Positions 3,585 through 48,040 of a stretch of DNA of 55,441 nt are shown one piece after another; positions within the stretch are counted from its first letter, which is position 1, and every line of letters starts with the position of its first letter. The stretch is from positions 1 to 55,441 of IMG/VR virus record IMGVR_UViG_3300044898_000092; one strand, written 5' to 3'. A model generated the notes under the pieces. That model did no database searches, was not told the DNA's origin, and saw only the letters and a list, made by a program, of their open reading frames with translations. The translations under genes and the position numbers were made by a program. The stretch comes from a virus (taxonomy: Duplodnaviria; Caudoviricetes).

Positions 3585-4370
3585 TTAAGCCCGGCGTTCG
3601 CGGATGGCGTAAGACCGGCTGTAGAGATCGCTAACCGTGAAAGGTTGAATAGTCTTCGACAATTGCCGCATCAGTCCCCAGACCGAAACCAGCCCGAGGT
3701 TCGCATTCGCGGTATCGCGGATGAACAGGATGTCGGCATGGGTGCCGTTGGCGATGTCCATCGGCTCGACGAGCGAGAGAAATTGCGCCTCAGTCACCCA
3801 ACCGAACGTCACTTCCCAATCGCGATAAGAAGGCCGCGCATCGACCGCGACGCCACCGCCCGCAAGCTCAGTCCACTTGCTGAGGTCGGTCCAGCCAAAG
3901 CCGGCACCAGGTTGATAGTTGTAGGTGAGTTGCGTCCGGTTTCCGGCGAGCACGCGCCCCGCCTGATTGGAACCCGCAGCTTTCGACCATGACCATTTGG
4001 CGGAGCGGACTGTCGTGTAGGTAGCCGGAGTCAGTAAATGGACTGCATAGCCGTAGCTCGGATCGACCACGCCCGCTTGCGCTGTGCTGTCATAGAGCTG
4101 CACTGCGGACGAATTGAATAGTTGCACCCGCACCGTATCGGTCAGCGCGAACTGCGATCCGATGCCCATCACAGCTAATGTGTCGATGGTTTGATCCGAT
4201 GCCCATGTGAAGGTAAAATTATCGGTCGTCCCACCCGTACCAAGCCACTTTGTGGAAACCGGAATCGTTTGCAGATTCGTGACCGGCGTCGAAGCGCCAG
4301 CGCTCGATGCCGTTGGCGTCGCGCTGTCGGCAAGATTGAGATACGCGATAGCGGCATTGCCCACGGTCAT
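3585..4370 (-). CDS. Minor tail / distal tail protein
   Basis: 261-aa ORF in tail-tip cluster; GRVLAG and GFGWTDLS motifs typical of siphophage minor tail proteins. Confidence 0.6.
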   Translation of the reverse strand: MTVGNAAIAYLNLADSATPTASSAGASTPVTNLQTIPVSTKWLGTGGTTDNFTFTWASDQTIDTLAVMGIGSQFALTDTVRVQLFNSSAVQLYDSTAQAGVVDPSYGYAVHLLTPATYTTVRSAKWSWSKAAGSNQAGRVLAGNRTQLTYNYQPGAGFGWTDLSKWTELAGGGVAVDARPSYRDWEVTFGWVTEAQFLSLVEPMDIANGTHADILFIRDTANANLGLVSVWGLMRQLSKTIQPFTVSDLYSRSYAIRERRA

Positions 4371-28811: not shown

Positions 28812-28982
28812 CTACCCCACCCTCTCAGTCTCTATGGCTTGGGTTGCTGCGGTCGACACTTTCAATGGACATTCGGATGGACGCCAATCGGTTTTTGCCA
28901 ACTCTCCGAACCATAGGCTCACGCAACGGTCACAAATCCACTCGCCGGATTGTTCGCATCGGCGCTCGCATTTATCAATCAT
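28812..28982 (-). CDS. 56-aa Cys-containing protein (not in ORF track)
   Basis: MIDKCERRCEQSGEWICDRC...; ATGA-coupled and abuts the next start. Confidence 0.5.
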   Translation of the reverse strand: MIDKCERRCEQSGEWICDRCVSLWFGELAKTDWRPSECPLKVSTAATQAIETERVG

Positions 28983-29989
28983 TCTGCTGCCTCGCGAATT
29001 TCTGAATCCGTCATGACCATTCCGCGAACAAGTCGCTTTGCGGCAATGGAGCCGGAGGCGGCAAGCCGAGTTGCAAGAGTGCGAAACGCATACGCGCCTT
29101 CCAAGCTGACAACTCCGTTGCCGAGCAGGCGAAGTCTGTCCACGCGAGCAATGTCCAGCCGGGAGGCCAGCCCATCAGCCACTCGACGAAAAGCGGGTTC
29201 AAGCTCCGGCGCTCTTTCGAGGATATGCCGCCAACTGTGTAGGTCGGATCGACCTGGTGGAAAGAGGTCGCCGCAGTCGGCCATTCCATCGCCACGCGGG
29301 GGAGCGGCCAGCCTCTCGTGCCGTAAAGTTCCTCGTTGGATTGTTGGCCGCTGTCCGATCGCCAATCGCGCGCTGTCGGCGTCGGCCAATTCGATACCGC
29401 TGTCTGTAAATTCTCGCCGCCATCCCGGCCGGAAGTTCCCGGACCCGTGACCATATTCGTTGTCGCAGTCGGCCACGGCGAGAATGAAGATTCGCTCACG
29501 TTCATGCGGCGCGCCGACCTCTGACGCCGTAAACAATCCACCCTCAAGCTCAAACCCCAGCCTGCGAAAGTCACGCCAAACCCGCTCGGCGCCTCCCGAC
29601 GAAAGCATGGCGCCGACGTTTTCAATAAGGACGAACCAGCATCCGGATTGGACGATGATGCGCCGTGCGGTACTCCAAAGGTCGCGCTCGTCGTCTTCGC
29701 CTTGTCGCAAGCCGGCGAGACTATGCGGCTGGCACGGGATGCCGCCAATGAGGCCATCCACGAGTCCACGCCACGGGCGGCCGTTGAAGGTTCTGGCATT
29801 GCTCCATACAGGAGCCTCATCCAATAAACCTTGTTGCATCGCGCAGACCAAGTGACTGGCGGCGAAGGCTTCCCTCTCCACCATACAGACTGTGCGAGCG
29901 CCTGGCATTGCCAACTCGACGCCGAGATCGAGCCCGCCGCCTCCGGTGCACAGGCTGATGATGTTGAAAGTTTCGGGATGTACAGCCAC
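28979..29989 (-). CDS. DNA cytosine-C5 methyltransferase, catalytic polypeptide
   Basis: Motifs I (SLCTGGGG), IV (GIPCQPHS), VI (IENV), VIII (PHERERIF), X (LGNGVV). Confidence 0.9.
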   Translation of the reverse strand: MAVHPETFNIISLCTGGGGLDLGVELAMPGARTVCMVEREAFAASHLVCAMQQGLLDEAPVWSNARTFNGRPWRGLVDGLIGGIPCQPHSLAGLRQGEDDERDLWSTARRIIVQSGCWFVLIENVGAMLSSGGAERVWRDFRRLGFELEGGLFTASEVGAPHERERIFILAVADCDNEYGHGSGNFRPGWRREFTDSGIELADADSARLAIGQRPTIQRGTLRHERLAAPPRGDGMADCGDLFPPGRSDLHSWRHILERAPELEPAFRRVADGLASRLDIARVDRLRLLGNGVVSLEGAYAFRTLATRLAASGSIAAKRLVRGMVMTDSEIREAAE

Positions 29990-29994
29990 GTCAA
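29011..29994 (-). CDS. Overlapping alternative-frame methyltransferase subunit (WPT repeats and motif IX-like segment)
   Basis: 327-codon open frame; TTGA-coupled to upstream gene; three WPT repeats and LNPLFVEWLMGWPPGWT. Confidence 0.65.
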   Translation of the reverse strand: MTWLYIPKLSTSSACAPEAAGSISASSWQCQALAQSVWWRGKPSPPVTWSARCNKVYWMRLLYGAMPEPSTAARGVDSWMASLAASRASRIVSPACDKAKTTSATFGVPHGASSSNPDAGSSLLKTSAPCFRREAPSGFGVTFAGWGLSLRVDCLRRQRSARRMNVSESSFSPWPTATTNMVTGPGTSGRDGGENLQTAVSNWPTPTARDWRSDSGQQSNEELYGTRGWPLPRVAMEWPTAATSFHQVDPTYTVGGISSKERRSLNPLFVEWLMGWPPGWTLLAWTDFACSATELSAWKARMRFALLQLGLPPPAPLPQSDLFAEWS

Positions 29995-30452
29995 GCCGCC
30001 CTCCCCACTTCAAGGGAGAGCAAAGTGTCGCGACGAGAAGCCCAATATTTTAGCGGGTTTTCTCCATAACGCTTCTCTCGAATGTACGCGTGAACGTTCG
30101 GATATCGATCGAAGTTTTTCGGGTCATGCCAGATGTTGGCGGGATACTCATCACGCATAATCGAAAGATCGGAATCGTAAAACTGATGTGGCATGGGCGG
30201 GCGAGGAAGCGGCCAATAGCCGCCATCTTCAAGCGTGACCGGATAGCCGATGCCGTCCCACGCGTGAATTGCCAAGACGCGAGCCGAGCCAATGAATCCA
30301 GGCAGCGGATGCAAATTCAGCCCTATGTAATCGACGTAAGTGTTGACCTTGACGTAAGGCTCGCGCGGCGGCGTGAAGGCCGGCACGACCAAACCAACCG
30401 CTGCAGCGGAGGCCGCGAGAAACAAGAAACGGCGGCGCGTAATATCGATCAT
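29991..30452 (-). CDS. Hypothetical protein with twin-arginine-like signal
   Basis: ITRRRFL followed by a hydrophobic stretch. Confidence 0.6.
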   Translation of the reverse strand: MIDITRRRFLFLAASAAAVGLVVPAFTPPREPYVKVNTYVDYIGLNLHPLPGFIGSARVLAIHAWDGIGYPVTLEDGGYWPLPRPPMPHQFYDSDLSIMRDEYPANIWHDPKNFDRYPNVHAYIREKRYGENPLKYWASRRDTLLSLEVGRAA

Positions 30453-30661
30453 GCAGCGACTCCCACTTCAAGGGAGACAGAAATACATGCAGGCGTGTTT
30501 CTGGATTCGATCTTGTCGAGTCCGCGCCAGAACTCAGTCCGCGTTTTGATTCCGTGTCGCGTGACCTTGACGAGGTCGCAGTTTTTACAAGCCCGCTCCG
30601 TCTTGCCAGCGCGAGGGAATCGTACCGGGTCGCCCCAGCTATGGCGGGGTGAGGTGGTCAT
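30449..30661 (-). CDS. Hypothetical protein
   Basis: ATGA coupled; H.WG...CKNC...C. Confidence 0.6.
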   Translation of the reverse strand: MTTSPRHSWGDPVRFPRAGKTERACKNCDLVKVTRHGIKTRTEFWRGLDKIESRNTPACISVSLEVGVAA

Positions 30662-30924
30662 GCCGCGCTCCGCTTTGGAGAAGCGGCCCGCGCTTGACCT
30701 GTAGCCTTGATGACCTCTACCGTCTGACTGATGGGAGCGTAGCTTACGAGCCCAGCTTTTTTTAGGGCGTCGACTGTAGGGTTGTTGCTTCGCAGCACTT
30801 CATAACCGCCGATTTCTCGCGACCTTGCCAGCGCATGAGCAGCGCCGCACTCGCCGAGGGTCGTGCAGGCCGAAACCTTTTTATCGGACGCGGGGTGCGG
30901 GCATTTTTTAAAGATGCAATTCAC
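30658..30924 (-). CDS. Hypothetical protein
   Basis: Coupled ORF. Confidence 0.5.
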   Translation of the reverse strand: MNCIFKKCPHPASDKKVSACTTLGECGAAHALARSREIGGYEVLRSNNPTVDALKKAGLVSYAPISQTVEVIKATGQARAASPKRSAA

Positions 30925-31124
30925 GACCCCACACCCTCCCGCTTCAACCGCAACAGCCGCCGTCCCTGTGCGATCAGGTTGCGTGCTGCATCCTCATCAA
31001 CTTCAAGCATTTCACATATGCAGCTAAGCTCGGCATCTCGACCGGCGGCGTCCGCAAATTTCGCCGCAAGTGCAGCCCTGATGTCGCGCATGTTGGATTC
31101 GGTGGCGGGCGCATTGGGTTTCAT
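30921..31124 (-). CDS. Hypothetical protein
   Basis: Coupled ORF. Confidence 0.55.
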   Translation of the reverse strand: MKPNAPATESNMRDIRAALAAKFADAAGRDAELSCICEMLEVDEDAARNLIAQGRRLLRLKREGVGS

Positions 31125-31357
31125 GCGCCACCCGATCGCGCCTTAGACATGCGCTTACGCATTCTCGCGGCTTTTTGCGCACCGTGCTTCCAGATCAAAC
31201 CCCGGCAGACTTGGCAGGTAGTGAAGGGCGGGAGCCTCGGATTTTCGCATCCGCGATTCACGCATCGCAGGATGTTGACCCCGCGGCGCAATGTTTCACG
31301 TTCTATTCTGTAAGTTCTTGATTTAACTAGATGTCGGGTCTGGATGTGCGCCATCAT
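31121..31357 (-). CDS. Small Cys-rich protein
   Basis: CVNRGC...CQVC; coupled. Confidence 0.55.
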   Translation of the reverse strand: MMAHIQTRHLVKSRTYRIERETLRRGVNILRCVNRGCENPRLPPFTTCQVCRGLIWKHGAQKAARMRKRMSKARSGGA

Positions 31358-31869
31358 GACCGCTCCTCGCCCAAAGCAGCCGCAGCGCGCGCGATCTCAA
31401 GTATTTCAGAATCGGGAACTGCGGGGGTGAAGGATTCGGGACCAAGGCGCACGGAGTCGGTACTGCTCCTGAATTGCGCGCGTTCATCATCGGTCACGAT
31501 TTCGACGCCAAGGTCTGCAGGATCAAGGAAATAGACTGGCTTGCTGGCCTCAATAAATACCCGGATTTCGTAGTGGATGCCGAACGACGCTTCCCAACCT
31601 GCCATCATCGCTACAAGGATGGCGTCAGACTTCGCCATCATAGCCTCGTCGAACGGTAGCCATACCTCATGGTCGATTGGGTTTAACCCGCCATGGATCG
31701 CCAGCGGATGCGTGTGAGCGATCGGGCTATAGACCTTCAGCCCTTCGCTCATCAGCCGCGCGGTAAGCTTGCAGGCGTCGACAAACGCGACTTCAATACC
31801 GCCCTTATATTTCGTGTACGGCGTACCGACGTAGATCAGGTCAAAACGTTTGAGGTCGGAGAGTTTCAT
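31354..31869 (-). CDS. DUF1937 / nucleoside deoxyribosyltransferase-like protein
   Basis: IYVGTPYT...VYSPIAHTHP...GWEASFGI.YEI. Confidence 0.75.
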   Translation of the reverse strand: MKLSDLKRFDLIYVGTPYTKYKGGIEVAFVDACKLTARLMSEGLKVYSPIAHTHPLAIHGGLNPIDHEVWLPFDEAMMAKSDAILVAMMAGWEASFGIHYEIRVFIEASKPVYFLDPADLGVEIVTDDERAQFRSSTDSVRLGPESFTPAVPDSEILEIARAAAALGEERS

Positions 31870-32709
31870 CTATTCCGCCGCCACCCTGTGACCGGCCGCC
31901 GCGCCGTTGGTCTTTTTCAGAACCCCGATTTTCTCCAATGTGTCGCGCGCCATTTCCGCTGCGTCATCATCGCCATCGGCGGCGATCTTCTGGAGCGTCG
32001 CAAGCATCAGCTTGACGTGCGGGACCGTCGCCTGGAATTCACCCGTCGATGCTTTTACGTGTGCCGTGGTGACGCGGGATTTGCCTTCGGACGCCGCTTG
32101 GCGTTTTGCGTTTGCGAGTGTTTCGCCGGCCTTGTCGCCGTGCTTGCGGACGACATGCATCGCAACCGATGGCGAGACTTCATTATCACGCACCATCTGT
32201 TGAACATCTTGAGGTGCGGCGAGCAAGTCGAGATGGTTATCGACCGTCTGTTTTGTTTCCCACCCGAGCCGCTTCGCGATCTGCACCTTCTCCCATCCGA
32301 ACCCGATGAGACGCTTGACCACTGCGGCGATTTCCAGAGCAGTTAACGGCTCGCCCGAATTCGAAACCACGAGATCAGCGCAACGATCCGCGTCCGAAGT
32401 ACCCTTGGCCTCGGCAATGCATGGGATCGACTGAATTTCCGCGCCAAACTTCTCAATCGCCATCATCGTTGCGGCACGGCGCCGATGGCCTGCGACAACG
32501 AAAATCTCCTCGCCCTTCAAGCGAACCGTGATGGGGTGCTCGATGCTGAAACCGTTATCGGCAATCGCTTGGGCGAGCTGATGCAGACTGGCGTGTGCCG
32601 CCGACGTCGTCAGGTCGCGCACATTGTAGCCTTCCTCGACCTGAATTTTCCTCGGGTCGATCATCAGCAAGTCGCGCTTGCTTTCCGCTAGGTCACGAAG
32701 CTGCGTCAC
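31870..32709 (-). CDS. ParB/Srx-like nuclease-domain protein
   Basis: GYNVRD...PITVR...VVAGHRR; GTG start with GGGAG RBS. Confidence 0.8.
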   Translation of the reverse strand: MTQLRDLAESKRDLLMIDPRKIQVEEGYNVRDLTTSAAHASLHQLAQAIADNGFSIEHPITVRLKGEEIFVVAGHRRRAATMMAIEKFGAEIQSIPCIAEAKGTSDADRCADLVVSNSGEPLTALEIAAVVKRLIGFGWEKVQIAKRLGWETKQTVDNHLDLLAAPQDVQQMVRDNEVSPSVAMHVVRKHGDKAGETLANAKRQAASEGKSRVTTAHVKASTGEFQATVPHVKLMLATLQKIAADGDDDAAEMARDTLEKIGVLKKTNGAAAGHRVAAE

Positions 32710-32740
32710 GATCGACTCCCGAAATTGCTTTGATGAATTT

Positions 32741-33502
32741 TCATGCGGCCACCCATTGATCGCGACCGATACTTTTGCCGGCTCCGAGCTGCAAGACCTT
32801 GCGGATTTGCTCACGCCAGTAGGGCGAACATTTCGCTTTAGGATGCCGCTGAAACACTCTGTAAAGATCGGAAACGCGAACTGGCCCGCTCTGCCGCTGC
32901 AGCCATTCGTTGATCGTCACGCGCCAGCTTCTATCATCCGGCAACGGCAAAACGAGAACGCCGCGTTGAAAGATCAGCGGAACGAACGCTCCGAAATCAC
33001 GAGACTGCGCTGCGAGAACGTCGGCATCAAATTCACCGAAGGCGCACAGGACGACAGGCGCGCCGCTGTTGGCGATTTTGCCGTAGTATTTTGATTCCGG
33101 ATTCTCAATCGTGCATGGCGCCCCATCTTCATTGCAGAAGATGACGCGACCCGCGAGGAAGAAGAGCGCCGATGCGCAATCCCAGATCGGCTTGAACCAT
33201 TCGGTTTCGGTGCGGACGTGTAGCAACAACGTACCGTTGTTGTGCTGGCACATTTTGCGAACGAACAACCCGACGCCGTAGCGATTGAACGGAGGGTTCA
33301 ACCAGGTGCGTCCGAACTCGCGCCAATCCATCGCAAGAGTGTCTTGCTCCACCGTTATATTGCGCTCGGTCCCGATATTCCACGGCCTGATCTTGCCCGT
33401 AGCGGCATCAGTCGGGAACGGCCCAAGCGGTTCGAACACGTAACGCGGCGTGAACCTCGAGTCGTTCTTCCCGATCGGCGTTTGATGCGATCCCATCGTC
33501 AT
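32741..33502 (-). CDS. Phage N6-adenine methyltransferase (Dam-like)
   Basis: FTP...LGPF.TDAA...WLNPPF...RTETEWF. Confidence 0.8.
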   Translation of the reverse strand: MTMGSHQTPIGKNDSRFTPRYVFEPLGPFPTDAATGKIRPWNIGTERNITVEQDTLAMDWREFGRTWLNPPFNRYGVGLFVRKMCQHNNGTLLLHVRTETEWFKPIWDCASALFFLAGRVIFCNEDGAPCTIENPESKYYGKIANSGAPVVLCAFGEFDADVLAAQSRDFGAFVPLIFQRGVLVLPLPDDRSWRVTINEWLQRQSGPVRVSDLYRVFQRHPKAKCSPYWREQIRKVLQLGAGKSIGRDQWVAA

Positions 33503-34518
33503 GCCGCGACCTCGCCCGCTGGCGCTTCGTATCCCCATGCATCCCATCCGGGACGCGCGGTGCGCGCATTCAATTCGATCTTGGGTAGCGTCGGGAAATA
33601 CGCTTCGATCAGCTCATAAAATTGAACTGGCTTTGCTGAATGTTTTCCGACTGGCGCATCAACAAGGCTCGCGACTTGCGTCCCCATCGCTGGCGCGGGG
33701 ATCTTGCCGCGCGTCCCGACAAGCAAAAGCTCGTGTTGATTTCGAAACCAGTAGCCGGTCCCAATGCGATCCTTTGCCCAAATGCAATGTGATTTGTAGT
33801 CGAAGCCCCAAGCGACCATGACGCGCAGCGCATCGGACAGCATCGGCACCGTTGCCCAAAGGAACAGTGCGCAATCGTCTGCGGCGATATCCACGACCGG
33901 GCGCGCGCAAATCTCATCGGTTCCCGACGTCGGGTAGTGGTTATCCGCAGCACGGTCCATGCCAGTGTCGCGGCTGTAAACTTCGAAACGCCATTCCGGG
34001 TCGGCGTAAATCACGCCGTATTTTTTGTCAGGCAAGGCGCGCTGTTCTGCCGCAAGCGTCGTCTCGCGTTCGGCGCGGCGCGCTTTCTTGTCGACGGCGG
34101 TAACGTCCAGAGAAACGCGGCCGCTCTGATCGGCGATGCGCTGGCGCACATTGGCAACAACAGCCTCGAATGCCTGCTCGCCGATGCCAGCCACCCTTTG
34201 CGAGCGGGACGAAAGGTTGCGGTCTACTCCTACGTCGTCCAACTTCACTCGAAAGTATTGTCCGTCGTCCTGACAATTCTTTTTTGGCTGACCGCGCGAA
34301 ATTTCACCCGCCTGTTTCGCGGCCGTGATCATGATCCCTAGCCGCCGCTCCGCACGCAGCCGCAGTTCCGAGGCGTCCGCTTCGAGCTGCGTATCGTTCG
34401 CCATCCGCGCATAGGCGGTCATGGCAGCGGCCTTGTCGTGGATATCCTTCACCTCGTCGACGCTACGGGCGTCGGCAAGAGCGGCGCGCGCGGCCTCGTA
34501 TCGGATAAGCGCCGTCAC
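33499..34518 (-). CDS. MT-A70 family methyltransferase with N-terminal helical domain
   Basis: YGVIYADPEW, HYPT, LFLWAT, GTGYWFRNQHE, HSAKP, ELNAR..RPGWDAWG. Confidence 0.9.
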   Translation of the reverse strand: MTALIRYEAARAALADARSVDEVKDIHDKAAAMTAYARMANDTQLEADASELRLRAERRLGIMITAAKQAGEISRGQPKKNCQDDGQYFRVKLDDVGVDRNLSSRSQRVAGIGEQAFEAVVANVRQRIADQSGRVSLDVTAVDKKARRAERETTLAAEQRALPDKKYGVIYADPEWRFEVYSRDTGMDRAADNHYPTSGTDEICARPVVDIAADDCALFLWATVPMLSDALRVMVAWGFDYKSHCIWAKDRIGTGYWFRNQHELLLVGTRGKIPAPAMGTQVASLVDAPVGKHSAKPVQFYELIEAYFPTLPKIELNARTARPGWDAWGYEAPAGEVAA

Positions 34519-35291
34519 AGCATCGCCTCCTGCTTCGCAAGCTTGGGCGGCTCTATGAAAAGATCAGGACGTGCGAGCGCGTTCGAAATTCGACGGCAGG
34601 AAATGTCAAAATATTTTTCAACCTTTTCGATCCCTGTGAAACGCTTCCCGCGCCGAACGGCCGCGACCCCGGTTGAACCGGCTCCCATGTAGGGATCAAT
34701 GACAGACTTCCCCTTGATGAATCCCATACACCACAGCATCAACGCTTCAGGCTTTTGCGACGGATGAAATCTTTTCTGGCCCGCTGTGACCTCGTGGCGC
34801 GCGCCCTCACCTACGCAGAGACCGTCCCATAGCAGCCGAAAAATACGCATCGGCTGGTCACGATTGATCCAGGCAGCTTCGCCGTCACCTTGATCGCGAA
34901 CTTTTCCGGTCGGCACCTTGTCCCATACCAGCCACCCGCCGGCAGGAAGCCGGTCAGCGAACTTGTGCGCGCCGAAGATCAGAAGTTCCGGCGCAAGCCC
35001 GAGCAGATGCGAGGGATCGAACGGCTTATCGTCGCCGATGATAGGTTCATAAATCGTGGGAGAAACGACTAGCGTCTTACCGTTGCGCTGGACGACTGCG
35101 TTCTCTCGCGTGCCGCCCGCATAGAACGTGTTGACCTTGTAATCCTGCCCATAAGGAGGATCGGTCACCACCGCATCATGCTTGACCAACGTCGGTAATA
35201 TCTCGTGGCTGTCGCCGAGATAACATGAGACGCCATCCGCAAGATGTTCGACGCGTACTGATGACGTGCTGCGATGGTTGGGGGTGCTCAT
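34515..35291 (-). CDS. N4-C/N6-A DNA methyltransferase (beta class)
   Basis: TDPPYG precedes HPSQKP and DPYMGAGSTG. Confidence 0.9.
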   Translation of the reverse strand: MSTPNHRSTSSVRVEHLADGVSCYLGDSHEILPTLVKHDAVVTDPPYGQDYKVNTFYAGGTRENAVVQRNGKTLVVSPTIYEPIIGDDKPFDPSHLLGLAPELLIFGAHKFADRLPAGGWLVWDKVPTGKVRDQGDGEAAWINRDQPMRIFRLLWDGLCVGEGARHEVTAGQKRFHPSQKPEALMLWCMGFIKGKSVIDPYMGAGSTGVAAVRRGKRFTGIEKVEKYFDISCRRISNALARPDLFIEPPKLAKQEAML

Positions 35292-45370: not shown

Positions 45371-45556
45371 GCGGACATACAGCAACGCCGATCTGCGACG
45401 CGAAAGCTTATGTCGAGAAGGCTATTGCCTCTTATCATGCGTATCGGGTTTAGACATACAGCCCCCAAAGGTTGACAGATGAAACCGTGGCTAGAAGGCG
45501 AACCAGAGGAATGCGACGGCTCCGCATGGGACCGTCTGCCGCCGCTTGTGCGCGCC

Positions 45557-46606
45557 TCAGTCATGATGGCTCGCCATCGTCGGATGCTTCCATTCTCCGC
45601 TGTAAAGCCCGTCATAGGTCGGTCCTTCGCCGTTGGTCCCGATTCCGAGCAACGAACGGAACGCGTTGAACGGGTAGAAACGCCGGTTAAATCGGAACGT
45701 GAACTCGTTCAGGTAGGTTTGCAGGTGCTTGGCGCTAATTGCGCCGTGATGCGTTCCGGCCAGCCAAGCCTTCAAGTTGCTGAAAACAAGGTGGACGATG
45801 GGCAGGTATTCTTCCGCGATTTCCGGGTTGCCAGCTTCGACCACGGGCAGGTGTGCATAGCCGCTCTTGCCGAGCTTGGTATAGGCCGGGGCCGCGTCAG
45901 TGATGACCATCGCGCCCGGCTCTACAGCCGCTTCGACAAAGCCAACCAAAGACTTAGCCGTCCGGTCTGGAACGATTTCCAGCCGCAAGCGGCCCGCGTA
46001 GCGTCCGCCGCGCCGCATGGGCTTGTCGCCCTTCTTGGCCGGGCGGGTGCGGACTTCTACAGCGGCGCAAACGATTGTCTTTTCATCAACATGAACGCCC
46101 CTGCCTTCACCGCGAAGCACGCCGCCGATGTAGGTTTCGTCAACCTCGACGTGATCGCCGCGCCCAAGGTTGCCGCCGATGCGGTCCCGGCCTTGGCGGA
46201 CCATCCCGGCGCGCAGCTTGTGCAGGATTTGGAACGCGGTTTCGTAACCCGTCAGGCCAAGTTGGCGCTGGAACTGCACTGCGGAAATTCCGGGCGTCAT
46301 GGTCGAGACAAGGTAGGCACCCCAAAACCACACGGTCAGCGGCGTATGCGTGCGCTGCATCACGGTATCGACCGTCAGGGACGTTTGCTTGCGGCATTTC
46401 CGGCACGTCAGAACGCTGGTCCGCGTCGTCATGCGGAACGGCTCGCCCTTTTCCTCGCAATGCGGGCACACGAAACCCTTGGGCCATTTCGCGCCCTCCA
46501 GGTATCGCGCGCACGCGGCGTCGTCCTTGAAAAGCTTCTGGAAGTCCCTGAGGGACTTGGGGAACGGCAGGTGCTCCCATTGCAGCACGTCGGCATGGGG
46601 AGGCAT
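45557..46606 (-). CDS. IS1595-family transposase
   Basis: Zn ribbon CPHC...CRKC, HTH, VEVDETYIGG, ITD, H...NLK, YLNEFTFRFNRR. Confidence 0.95.
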   Translation of the reverse strand: MPPHADVLQWEHLPFPKSLRDFQKLFKDDAACARYLEGAKWPKGFVCPHCEEKGEPFRMTTRTSVLTCRKCRKQTSLTVDTVMQRTHTPLTVWFWGAYLVSTMTPGISAVQFQRQLGLTGYETAFQILHKLRAGMVRQGRDRIGGNLGRGDHVEVDETYIGGVLRGEGRGVHVDEKTIVCAAVEVRTRPAKKGDKPMRRGGRYAGRLRLEIVPDRTAKSLVGFVEAAVEPGAMVITDAAPAYTKLGKSGYAHLPVVEAGNPEIAEEYLPIVHLVFSNLKAWLAGTHHGAISAKHLQTYLNEFTFRFNRRFYPFNAFRSLLGIGTNGEGPTYDGLYSGEWKHPTMASHHD

Positions 46607-46609
46607 GGA

Positions 46610-46882
46610 TCAGCCCTCCCTCAGATCGGTCGAGCGGCAATACGGGCAAAAGTTCGGTTTTCCCGCGTGCAAAACCGTTCCGCGGCACTTGCCACAGTTC
46701 CAAACCCCGGTCGGTGGGGACTCGATTTCGCCGTGACCCGCGCAGTGCTCGCAATCTTCCTGCTCGGGGCTGTCCGGATGGCTGATGAGTCCGCGCCCCT
46801 TGCACGTCGGGCACACCTCGTAGCGAGGGATATCGGCCTCGGTGTAGTTGGTGTTGCAATAGTCCTGATATACCCGGGACAT
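46610..46882 (-). CDS. IS passenger: Zn-finger protein
   Basis: CPTCKGRG...CEHCAGHG (DnaJ-like repeats) plus CGKC...CPYC. Confidence 0.75.
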   Translation of the reverse strand: MSRVYQDYCNTNYTEADIPRYEVCPTCKGRGLISHPDSPEQEDCEHCAGHGEIESPPTGVWNCGKCRGTVLHAGKPNFCPYCRSTDLREG

Positions 46883-46885
46883 GGC

Positions 46886-47236
46886 TCAGCGCTCCATAAT
46901 TGCGCGGAACTTCCGTCGCAAAGTTTGCCGAGTGTATTCTGTTGCCTTTTCATCGGCGTTTTCCGGCTCACAGAGGCCAATCGCGTCATTAATCAGATCT
47001 TCAATAGTGTCGTCGGACGGCTTCCGACGAACCTGCGACTTCCGCTCAGCCTCCATGCCGGACTGAAAGCCATAAGTGTACCAATCCTCGGCAACCTTCA
47101 TCGTCTCGGACGACGGGGCAGGCGGGCGCACGCCAAGCAATTGCAACAAAACCTTGGCCGCCAACTTGATGGCGTCGTGCTGGCCCGGCTCTCCCGTATA
47201 GAGGTGGTCGTTCAAAATTCTCTCAATGGCATTCAT
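46886..47236 (-). CDS. IS passenger: hypothetical protein
   Basis: 116 aa, same frame as neighbours. Confidence 0.7.
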   Translation of the reverse strand: MNAIERILNDHLYTGEPGQHDAIKLAAKVLLQLLGVRPPAPSSETMKVAEDWYTYGFQSGMEAERKSQVRRKPSDDTIEDLINDAIGLCEPENADEKATEYTRQTLRRKFRAIMER

Positions 47237-47239
47237 GAC

Positions 47240-47536
47240 TCACCCCCGCCAGACTGTCTTGCCGTTGGTAAGATCGACAATGATCCCGCCGTCGAAGCGC
47301 ATGCCGAGCGCAACATCGCTCAGTCGGTAGTTATTGTTGTTCCCGCGCAGGTGATAATGGGTGTCAGCCACGACGCGCACGTCAAACCAAACGTCGCGCT
47401 GAGTCTGCCCATAATACTTGCTGCTGCGCTTGATGCGGGCCACAAGCTGTTGCGCCTTTCCGGCATCCGCCCGCTCCAAACGGTCGAGATATTCAGAGCG
47501 CATTTCGCCCGGCAGCAATGGTTCCAGCGGTTTCAT
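47240..47536 (-). CDS. IS passenger: hypothetical protein
   Basis: GGAGAG RBS; SSKYYGQ...F.V...GNNNNYRLSDV. Confidence 0.7.
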   Translation of the reverse strand: MKPLEPLLPGEMRSEYLDRLERADAGKAQQLVARIKRSSKYYGQTQRDVWFDVRVVADTHYHLRGNNNNYRLSDVALGMRFDGGIIVDLTNGKTVWRG

Positions 47537-47575
47537 CTGTCTCTCCATCAAAGGGCGGAAGCGCCCAATGACAAA

Positions 47576-47604
47576 ACTCTACAGGAAGGTACTGTATGTG
47601 TCAA
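47576..47604 (-). promoter_or_regulatory. Sigma70-type promoter with its -35 inside the IS inverted repeat
   Basis: TTGACA-17nt-TAGAGT on the minus strand; the other IR has TTTAGA at the equivalent position. Confidence 0.75.
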
Positions 47605-47863
47605 CCCGATAGGCATGCCTCTTATGACGGCGACCCTGCAGACAACCAATATCAAAAAGGCTTCTTGGCCGCGCTCGTAGTCGTCCGCGATGAAGCTTTC
47701 ACCGGTTGCAACTCCCACGCCGATCTCGTGAAGGCGCTGGAGGAAATCGCGACGGGTTGCGATGACGAACATCTGCATCCGTTCAACAGCGTTTGGGCAG
47801 AACTGATCAAGTCTCGCGCCCGCGCAGCCCTCGCCACGCTGACCGCGCGAAAGGTGGGGTGAG

Positions 47864-48040
47864 ATGGCGAATGAACAGAAGCCCTACGCCTACGTCGCAT
47901 TCAAAGGCGACACATGGCACGGCAGTTGCGATCCCGCCACCGCGGACGATTGGACCAATAAACTTCTCGCTGCTGGATGCTCGGTAAAGCCAGTTTTCAG
48001 CAAGGCTGAATACGACGCTGAAATGGAAAAACTGAAATGA
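47864..48040 (+). CDS. 58-aa hypothetical protein (not in ORF track)
   Basis: MANEQKPYAYVAFKG...; coupled to next gene. Confidence 0.55.
   Translation: MANEQKPYAYVAFKGDTWHGSCDPATADDWTNKLLAAGCSVKPVFSKAEYDAEMEKLK

Follow-up and report, generated by a model that had tools for sequence, protein, structure and literature searches.

Transporter insertion sequences (tIS), in which passenger genes lie inside the terminal repeats and move with the transposase, were reportedly described for the IS1595 family by Siguier, Gagnevin and Chandler in 2009 (cited in PMC3129680). Within this family the ISSod11 subgroup, which we take to be defined by repeats of the form nnnGCnTATC and by a D-D-H-K signature with E, R(+4) and R(+7), comprises elements of about 1.0-1.1 kb with a single open reading frame (ORF). 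Insertion sequences (IS) are normally harmful in operons because they are polar, and phages consist almost entirely of operons; to our knowledge, IS elements are rare in phages. A TnCentral preprint describes tIS as so far restricted to the IS1595 and IS66 families (10.1101/2021.05.26.445724). We analyzed such an element in a 55,441-nucleotide (nt) stretch of viral DNA (Duplodnaviria; Caudoviricetes), positions 1 to 55,441 of IMG/VR record IMGVR_UViG_3300044898_000092 and hereafter called the window. The window is a provirus record in which head, tail, replication, repressor and integrase genes were recognisable, and its minus strand carries at 45436-47617 an IS1595-family element of 2182 bp with four ORFs, namely three small passengers (P1, P2 and P3) followed by a transposase. 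About 40 related elements in viral contigs and alphaproteobacterial metagenome-assembled genomes (MAGs) had the leader and the transposase in common and carried unrelated cargo. The best explanation of the whole, to which we give a probability of about 55%, is that this tIS is built to be translatable from end to end in both orientations and to be non-polar in phage operons.

The transposase (349 amino acids (aa), 45557-46606, minus strand) combined an N-terminal zinc ribbon with a DDE domain. It matched PF12762, the DDE_Tnp_IS1595 (ISXO2-like) domain, with E = 7.6e-33 (114 bits against a cut-off of 27) and PF12760, the zinc ribbon, at residues 27-74 (E = 1e-12), and it passed NCBIfam NF033547 with 183.6 bits against a cut-off of 75. 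Inverted repeats of 26 nt bounded the element on the minus strand, the right one (IRR) at 45436-45461 and the left one (IRL) at 47592-47617; they were 88% complementary and occurred in just these two copies in the window. An 8-bp target-site duplication lay outside them, with the left copy ATAAGAGG at 47618-47625 and the right copy, identical in 8 of 8 positions when read on the minus strand, at 45428-45435. These features are the terminal repeats and duplication of the IS1595 family. The IRL began with CATGCCTATC and the transposase contained the ISSod11-type residues ...VDETY..., ...ITDAAP..., ...THHGAISAK... and ...NEFTFRFNRR, a likeness read by eye against the subgroup definition rather than from an alignment to reference members. 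Length and gene number departed from the subgroup, with 2182 bp and four ORFs in place of about 1 kb and one. When the element and one duplicate were excised in silico, an uninterrupted 101-codon plus-strand ORF was restored. Since the target is thus reconstituted and the duplication encloses the entire unit, the 2182 bp were inserted as one piece, cargo included. The passengers lie inside the repeats and moved with the transposase, and no transposition-related family was found among them. No recombinase was present among the element ORFs and the 3-nt spacers between them leave no room for attC sites, showing that the array is not an integron. The element is thus a tIS of the IS1595 family, ISSod11-like, in agreement with a preliminary description made from the sequence of the window, which had proposed an element of this kind with cargo moved inside its repeats. 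In GenBank phages no close relative was found, the two matches having 25% identity.

All four minus-strand ORFs shared one frame: P1 (98 aa, 47240-47536, from the ATG at 47536, with a TTG at 47551), P2 (116 aa, 46886-47236), P3 (90 aa, 46610-46882) and the transposase. They were joined by GGG TGA GTC ATG between P1 and P2 (47234-47245), CGC TGA GCC ATG between P2 and P3 (46880-46891) and GGC TGA TCC ATG between P3 and the transposase (46604-46615), all on the minus strand, and G-rich Shine-Dalgarno-like runs lay within the last codons of each upstream gene. The preliminary description had reported this common frame, the three TGA-NNC-ATG junctions and the ribosome-binding runs inside the upstream gene ends, and each was found exactly where it had placed them. 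The point it missed was that the common frame accompanies an avoidance of antisense stops at the level of codons.

On the plus strand, codon-aligned with all four genes, an antisense frame of 733 codons was open from 45479 to 47680, starting 43 nt inside the IRR and ending 63 nt past the IRL. It covered 714 of the 727 element codons, and the other non-genic frames were open over at most 269. In all 17 main-clade elements (17/17) the aligned antisense frame, and no other, ran open for almost the full length, in four cases without any interruption. In 18 of 31 elements it either crossed the outer IRL end or stopped no more than 30 nt short of it. An antisense ATG lay 43-52 nt from the IRR end in most elements, and in one subclade the terminal ATG of the repeat opened the frame. 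On the sense strand, stops in all three frames preceded the first ATG in 20 of 24 elements, and from that point on the genes succeeded one another without gaps.

Of all codons, only TTA, CTA and TCA become stops when the aligned antisense frame is read. Together they made up 5 of 4207 cargo codons against 204 of 22673 codons in flanking genes, an approximately 8-fold depletion (Poisson p = 2.7e-11), and 6 of 8634 codons in the transposases. The depletion was significant for Ser and for Leu taken separately (binomial p = 2.7e-6 and 1.9e-5, respectively). The GC content at third codon positions (GC3) of the cargo was lower than that of the control genes (0.656 vs 0.73) and A-ending codons were more frequent (144 vs 112 per 1000), indicating that the depletion is not an effect of GC content; ATA, GTA, ACA and AGA were as frequent as in the controls or more so. 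Among the 774 codons of an independent set, made up of 8 cassettes of 5 elements found later, none of the three codons occurred (p = 9e-4).

The junctions of the relatives followed the same geometry. Junctions were called automatically along 42 non-redundant transposase-bearing elements, 34 of which yielded a total of 64. This procedure missed L002, L020 and L025, whose spacers were 3, 3 and 3 nt, 3, 3 and 0 nt, and 0 and 0 nt, respectively, and it mis-called parts of L008 and L047. Forty-nine of the 64 junctions were in frame: 34 had a 3-nt spacer (GCC in 19), 10 had no spacer and 5 had 6, 9 or 12 nt, with GCC ATG still at the end of the 6- and 9-nt spacers. The 15 junctions out of frame came mostly from a divergent clade and also from two mis-called composites. 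The consensus linker was GGAGGGC TGA GCC ATG. Among 114 control gene starts, GCC preceded the ATG at 6 and TGAGCC at none. In a naive junction scan, a spacing of +3 was found at 22 of 61 cargo-region junctions vs 23 of 1165 in 227 kb of phage flanks (Fisher p = 7e-19). The flanks had -4 overlaps at 322 of the 1165 junctions, and in the window outside the element -4 overlaps were dominant (44) and +3 occurred three times, showing that neighbouring phage genes use ATGA overlaps in place of the spacer. These counts bear out the earlier view that the identical junction geometry was unlikely to be a product of chance, and they make it a standard of the whole family: relatives with different cargo kept the spacing and the frame, the opposite of the fixed cargo and random spacing that would have spoken against it. 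An overlap of the ATGA type would put the next gene out of frame and so interrupt the antisense frame, whereas a stop followed by 0, 3, 6, 9 or 12 nt and an ATG keeps it. A shared reading frame is unnecessary for translational coupling. Taken with the codon depletion, the frame-preserving spacers indicate that the in-frame train is best understood as the outward sign of selection that keeps an antisense frame open.

Mobility and cargo turnover were evident from the relatives. The transposase search returned 35 loci in viral contigs and 14 in genomes, nearly all of them alphaproteobacterial MAGs, with 56-94% identity, and a search with the left-repeat pattern added at least 142 further stretches of viral contigs. 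The distance from an IRL to the transposase ATG downstream of it was 73-2940 nt in 36 of 50 entries, and perfect 8-bp duplications were found around 25 of 33. Altogether 47 unique insertion sites had perfect 8-bp duplications, transposase-less derivatives counted, and the target 8-mers were AT-rich. DNA homology between elements was limited to the first 77-90 nt (repeat and leader, up to the first ATG) and to the part from the transposase ATG to the IRR. Clustering of the cargo ORFs gave 62 singletons and only 2 cross-element families, with a few more links in a larger set. Two relatives, L007 and L009, had no cargo between the IRL and the transposase ATG (90 nt). Contigs of three other sequencing runs lacked the DNA between the transposase ATG and either the leader or the ATG of the first cassette: in one, positions 46607-47533 of the window were replaced by 607 different letters, and the others skipped 46608-47543 or 46606-47591. 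There were also contigs whose ends fell precisely on 45436 and 47617. All four runs compared were of DNA, and no RNA run covering the element was found. In runs X2 and X4, some joints bridged a gap of about 2.3 kb at the element; their short sides measured 27-34 nt, and they may come from other organisms and were not used as evidence of an empty site. A likeness of the transposase start (CATGCC) to the IRL tip was inconsistent across relatives and was dropped.

Transposase-less mini-elements formed a further group of 20 non-redundant units of 259-849 bp, each with repeats and one ORF, and perfect duplications were present in 15 of the 20 (L068, L116, L134, L102, L115, L098, L077, L106, L097, L081, L133, L100, L073, L095 and L092). 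Their single ORFs, each with a Shine-Dalgarno motif of its own, fill these 15 units and encode 62-252 aa. One of the products is an N6/N4 DNA methyltransferase. Another unit of this kind, in L054, carries a P1 homologue, and a Lar-like protein is encoded in a further mini-element of L133 (at 2741), where the duplication is offset by one base. A backbone P1 homologue in L056 is preceded, at a distance of about 1 kb, by a 581-bp repeat-bounded element (872-1452) whose duplication is AAACAAAC. Composite units were also seen. L008 (2820-5084) is one duplication-flanked unit with a second, internal left repeat at 3761. Four cassettes linked by TGA GCC come first, followed by the internal repeat, then by a 68-aa fragment akin to a methyltransferase of a mini-element, and finally by the transposase; the unit has the look of a nested or fused element that has yet to be cleaned up. 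L009 (3911-6473) holds a 468-aa N6/N4 methyltransferase downstream of the transposase on the opposite strand, inside the repeats and the duplication. In L047 (2247-5091) the transposase was disrupted, another mobile element lay in the leader region and the antisense frame was broken.

The common frame and the long antisense ORF might be passive by-products of GC-rich codon usage, i.e., a shadow ORF beside a compact design for translational coupling. The exact 16-mer linker GGAGGGCTGAGCCATG occurred at 125 or more places in viral contigs and was a true in-frame gene junction at 110 of 125, with an IRL upstream in 2 of these 110 and a transposase motif downstream in 0, showing that such junctions arise without the element. 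Long antisense ORFs are also common in GC-rich DNA, and plasmid relatives had only 1-2 antisense stops. However, precisely the three antisense-stop codons were missing from cargo whose GC3 is below the control and whose A-ending codons are more numerous, and the restriction of spacers to 0, 3, 6, 9 or 12 nt in 49 of 53 non-overlapping junctions is not needed for coupling alone, which the neighbouring phage genes achieve by -4 and -1 overlaps. We therefore consider a passive origin unlikely. Junctions neighbouring the GGAGGGCTGAGCCATG sites were ordinary (+3 in 24 of 921), and the linker motif is a sporadic good junction of GC-rich phages; the element is special in that this linker dominates in it. 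Two to three exact copies of GGAGGGCTGAGCCATG were also found within 170-900 nt in each of the unrelated viral contigs L219 (2001-2181), L242 (2001-2184) and L268 (2001-2917), where they joined ORFs of about 50-100 codons and no left repeat or transposase motif was detected. The same motif bears on the proposal in the preliminary description that the junction is used to capture and shuffle genes, with cassettes gained, lost and exchanged at stop-GCC-ATG as in an integron-like array. The standard geometry of that proposal held, and GCC was found in 19 of 34 3-nt junctions vs 6 of 114 control starts and was kept before the ATG in the 6- and 9-nt spacers. Homologous cassettes started exactly at the ATG, finished at the stop and were found with different neighbours or positions (L004/L010, L016/L045, P1 of the window and the L054 mini-element, and cassette 5 of L008 with L091 and L092). 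A dedicated site nevertheless seems quite doubtful, since the element contains no recombinase besides its DDE transposase, the shared cassettes were few and old (49-73% identity), no recent linker swap was caught, the identical 16-mer junction occurs in many phages without the element, and the codon depletion is left unexplained.

In favour of a real protein encoded by the antisense frame, the frame was open over 457-714 codons in 17 elements and mostly had its ATG 43-52 nt from the IRR end. Such a protein is highly improbable, because the antisense sequence over the cargo was as variable as the cargo itself, the order GC3 > GC1 > GC2 (GC content at third, first and second codon positions) marks the sense ORFs as the coding ones, and the sense ORFs have family matches (the P1 family, Lar and methyltransferases). 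The preliminary description had also offered UGA read-through or reinitiation that would couple transposase output to cargo translation; by read-through or recoding, cargo and transposase would be joined into fusion proteins. All three stops in the window are TGA and the frame is continuous, but across the relatives TGA was used 36 times, TAA 19 and TAG 9, including a TAA directly followed by ATG; every cassette had its own Shine-Dalgarno-like run and ATG, and the cassettes were unrelated proteins. Read-through is therefore hardly credible and this part of the description was not supported.

In the explanation that we propose, the 2182-bp unit transposed into a small early gene of a temperate alphaproteobacterial phage. 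On its own strand, a promoter with the -35 hexamer in the left repeat would drive a single operon of leader, three passengers and transposase. Each gene closes with a Shine-Dalgarno-like run and its stop, and only three bases separate it from the ATG that follows, so that translation could continue gaplessly along the operon. Because all genes of the element, passengers as well, avoid TTA, CTA and TCA, the antisense frame stays open from just inside the IRR out through the IRL. The 5' part of the interrupted phage gene (45367-45435, plus strand) now runs to a stop at 45453 inside the IRR, an ORF that begins at an ATG inside the IRL (47596-47862, plus strand) is in frame with the 3' part of the gene (47626-47862), and the next phage gene begins at 47864. 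Antisense transit in the window could thus proceed from the stop at 45453 to the frame 45479-47680, then from the ATG at 47596 to the end of that frame at 47862, and on to the gene at 47864. Ribosomes on a read-through phage transcript would cover the RNA, Rho termination would not take place, and the downstream phage genes would be expressed.

The element in the window is oriented antisense to early plus-strand phage genes. Judged against PHROG-matching flank genes at 22 loci, the element was sense at 6, antisense at 9 and mixed at 1, with 6 loci lacking a match; the antisense copy of the window comes in addition to these. PHROG matches were used since the flank strand by base composition was undecided at 24 of 58 sides and 23 of 38 sites. 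A sense case is L008, which lies between tail genes and the tape-measure gene. Several points weigh against translation in both orientations. The mini-elements were not depleted in the three codons (27 of 2337), and the antisense frame stopped short of the IRL in 13 of 31 elements, mostly composite, interrupted or divergent ones. Stops in all three frames before the ATG were found at the antisense entry in only 7 of 24 elements, and a three-frame stop-and-restart module there was not relied on. Antisense stops are already scarce in the plasmid relatives (1 of 339 and 2 of 341 codons), and since the transposases are related to one another, the depletion in them does not count as independent evidence. 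The control genes were defined by composition and not by a gene finder, and orientation came from PHROG matches in the flanks only, which 6 of the 22 loci did not provide.

Going further, we suggest, at somewhat short of even odds, that the family is a phage-resident clade of DDE transposons with translational transparency (antisense-stop codons purged even from fresh cargo, one frame, non-polar) and is also a transposase-driven counterpart of integrons that shuttles a very large pool of tiny accessory genes between phages. If the element is indeed translatable on both strands, this would explain how a transposon colonises phage genomes, and it would reveal a selective force on the synonymous codons of unrelated genes that is set purely by residence. 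The in-frame gene chain together with the absence of TTA, CTA and TCA provides a searchable signature for other mobile elements.

None of the passengers in the window reached the Pfam cut-off. P1 belongs to a widespread family of small phage proteins (phrog_21559, E = 3.8e-11; 308 relatives), and its homologues also occurred in phage backbones with ordinary junctions. Its predicted structure was a helix with a small beta barrel (predicted local distance difference test score, pLDDT, 86), and no fold match was found for the model in the PDB at E <= 0.001. P2 is a near-orphan, with no Pfam or PHROG family and only 3 partial relatives at E <= 0.001. P3 contains two CxxCxGxG motifs and a zinc ribbon; it matched PF00684 with E = 4.2e-5, below the Pfam cut-off, its zinc-finger matches were all sub-threshold, and its nearest Atlas clusters were viral and of unknown function. 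Scans of viral contigs returned 1 weak locus for P2 and 5 for P3. Of 95 cargo proteins scanned from the relatives, 6 reached the Pfam cut-off: 2 Lar-like restriction-alleviation proteins, 2 N6/N4 DNA methyltransferases, 1 borderline C-5 methyltransferase and 1 DUF551 protein. Where a function of the cargo can be named, it is probably anti-restriction, as the Lar-like proteins and DNA methyltransferases suggest. The cargo pool is large and almost wholly uncharacterised, and is a promising place for anti-defence genes.

The leader of the element carries an inward promoter-like site, TTGACA-17-TAGAGT (47576-47604, minus strand; 10 of 12 matches), with the -35 hexamer within the IRL. It was the sole promoter-like site in 45380-47700, and TTGAC and the TA of the -10 were conserved in 26 leaders; no terminator-like site was found in the same interval. 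A GC hairpin, GGGCG-cttc-CGCCC (47553-47566, minus strand), sits between this promoter and the first ribosome-binding site. RNAalifold on the 26 leaders gave no consensus pairs, and the hairpin comes from reading the sequence. Within the set L002-L045, some relatives have other stems at this place (GGCCG/CGGCC, GGTGGCG/CGCCACC and TTGGA/TCCAA). A perfect 14-nt inverted repeat pairs 45474-45487 with 47528-47541, such that the P1 start region GACAGATGAAACCG is copied in inverted form near the IRR; chance expectation for such pairs was estimated at about 0.01. The antisense ORF takes its ATG from the inverted copy (45474-45487, 14 nt, 100%), which lies in a window-specific segment (45462-45556, minus strand) extending from the transposase stop to the IRR; relatives lack homology at element positions 2060-2142. 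Elsewhere in the prophage, four DNA methyltransferase genes (PHROGs 363, 111, 359 and 67) lie within 6.3 kb on the minus strand (28982-35291).

The element family is a known kind, and its bidirectional openness and cassette trains seem to be undescribed. In literature searches we found no description of phage-resident IS1595 cassette trains, of the standard linker or of an IS open on both strands; ISSod11-type tIS may already be listed in the supplements of the 2009 IS1595 paper or in ISfinder entries, neither of which this search covered. Like other tIS, the element has an IS1595-type transposase, terminal inverted repeats, an 8-bp duplication and passengers within the repeats. It differs from them in its cargo, a train of phage-type genes that are very small and mostly orphans, placed upstream of the transposase and joined in one frame by a standard linker. 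This cargo turns over far faster than the transposase, and an antisense frame stays open throughout the element; all members of the present clade that were seen came from uncultivated viral contigs and MAGs. ISAcr1 and related IS1595 elements of alphaproteobacterial plasmids share approximately 66-68% DNA identity in the transposase gene and a similar IRL-like end with TTGAC. However, ISAcr1-type elements have no cargo, the match being to the transposase only, and their antisense frame is broken by 1-2 stops. Mobile insertion cassettes were reportedly described by De Palmenaer et al. in 2004 as MIC231 of IS231, and the present clade likewise has transposase-less, repeat-bounded units (20, of 259-849 bp with one ORF each); these belong to another IS family and reside in phage genomes alongside autonomous elements with trains of genes. 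As in integron arrays, small, diverse, promoterless genes are expressed from one end promoter, but there is no tyrosine integrase and no attC, the DDE transposase mobilises the array, and cassette boundaries are ORF boundaries. In classical polar IS insertions, where loss of Rho function brings relief, the IS leaves untranslated RNA exposed within an operon. The same problem applies here, whereas the present element appears to be built to avoid polarity in both orientations.

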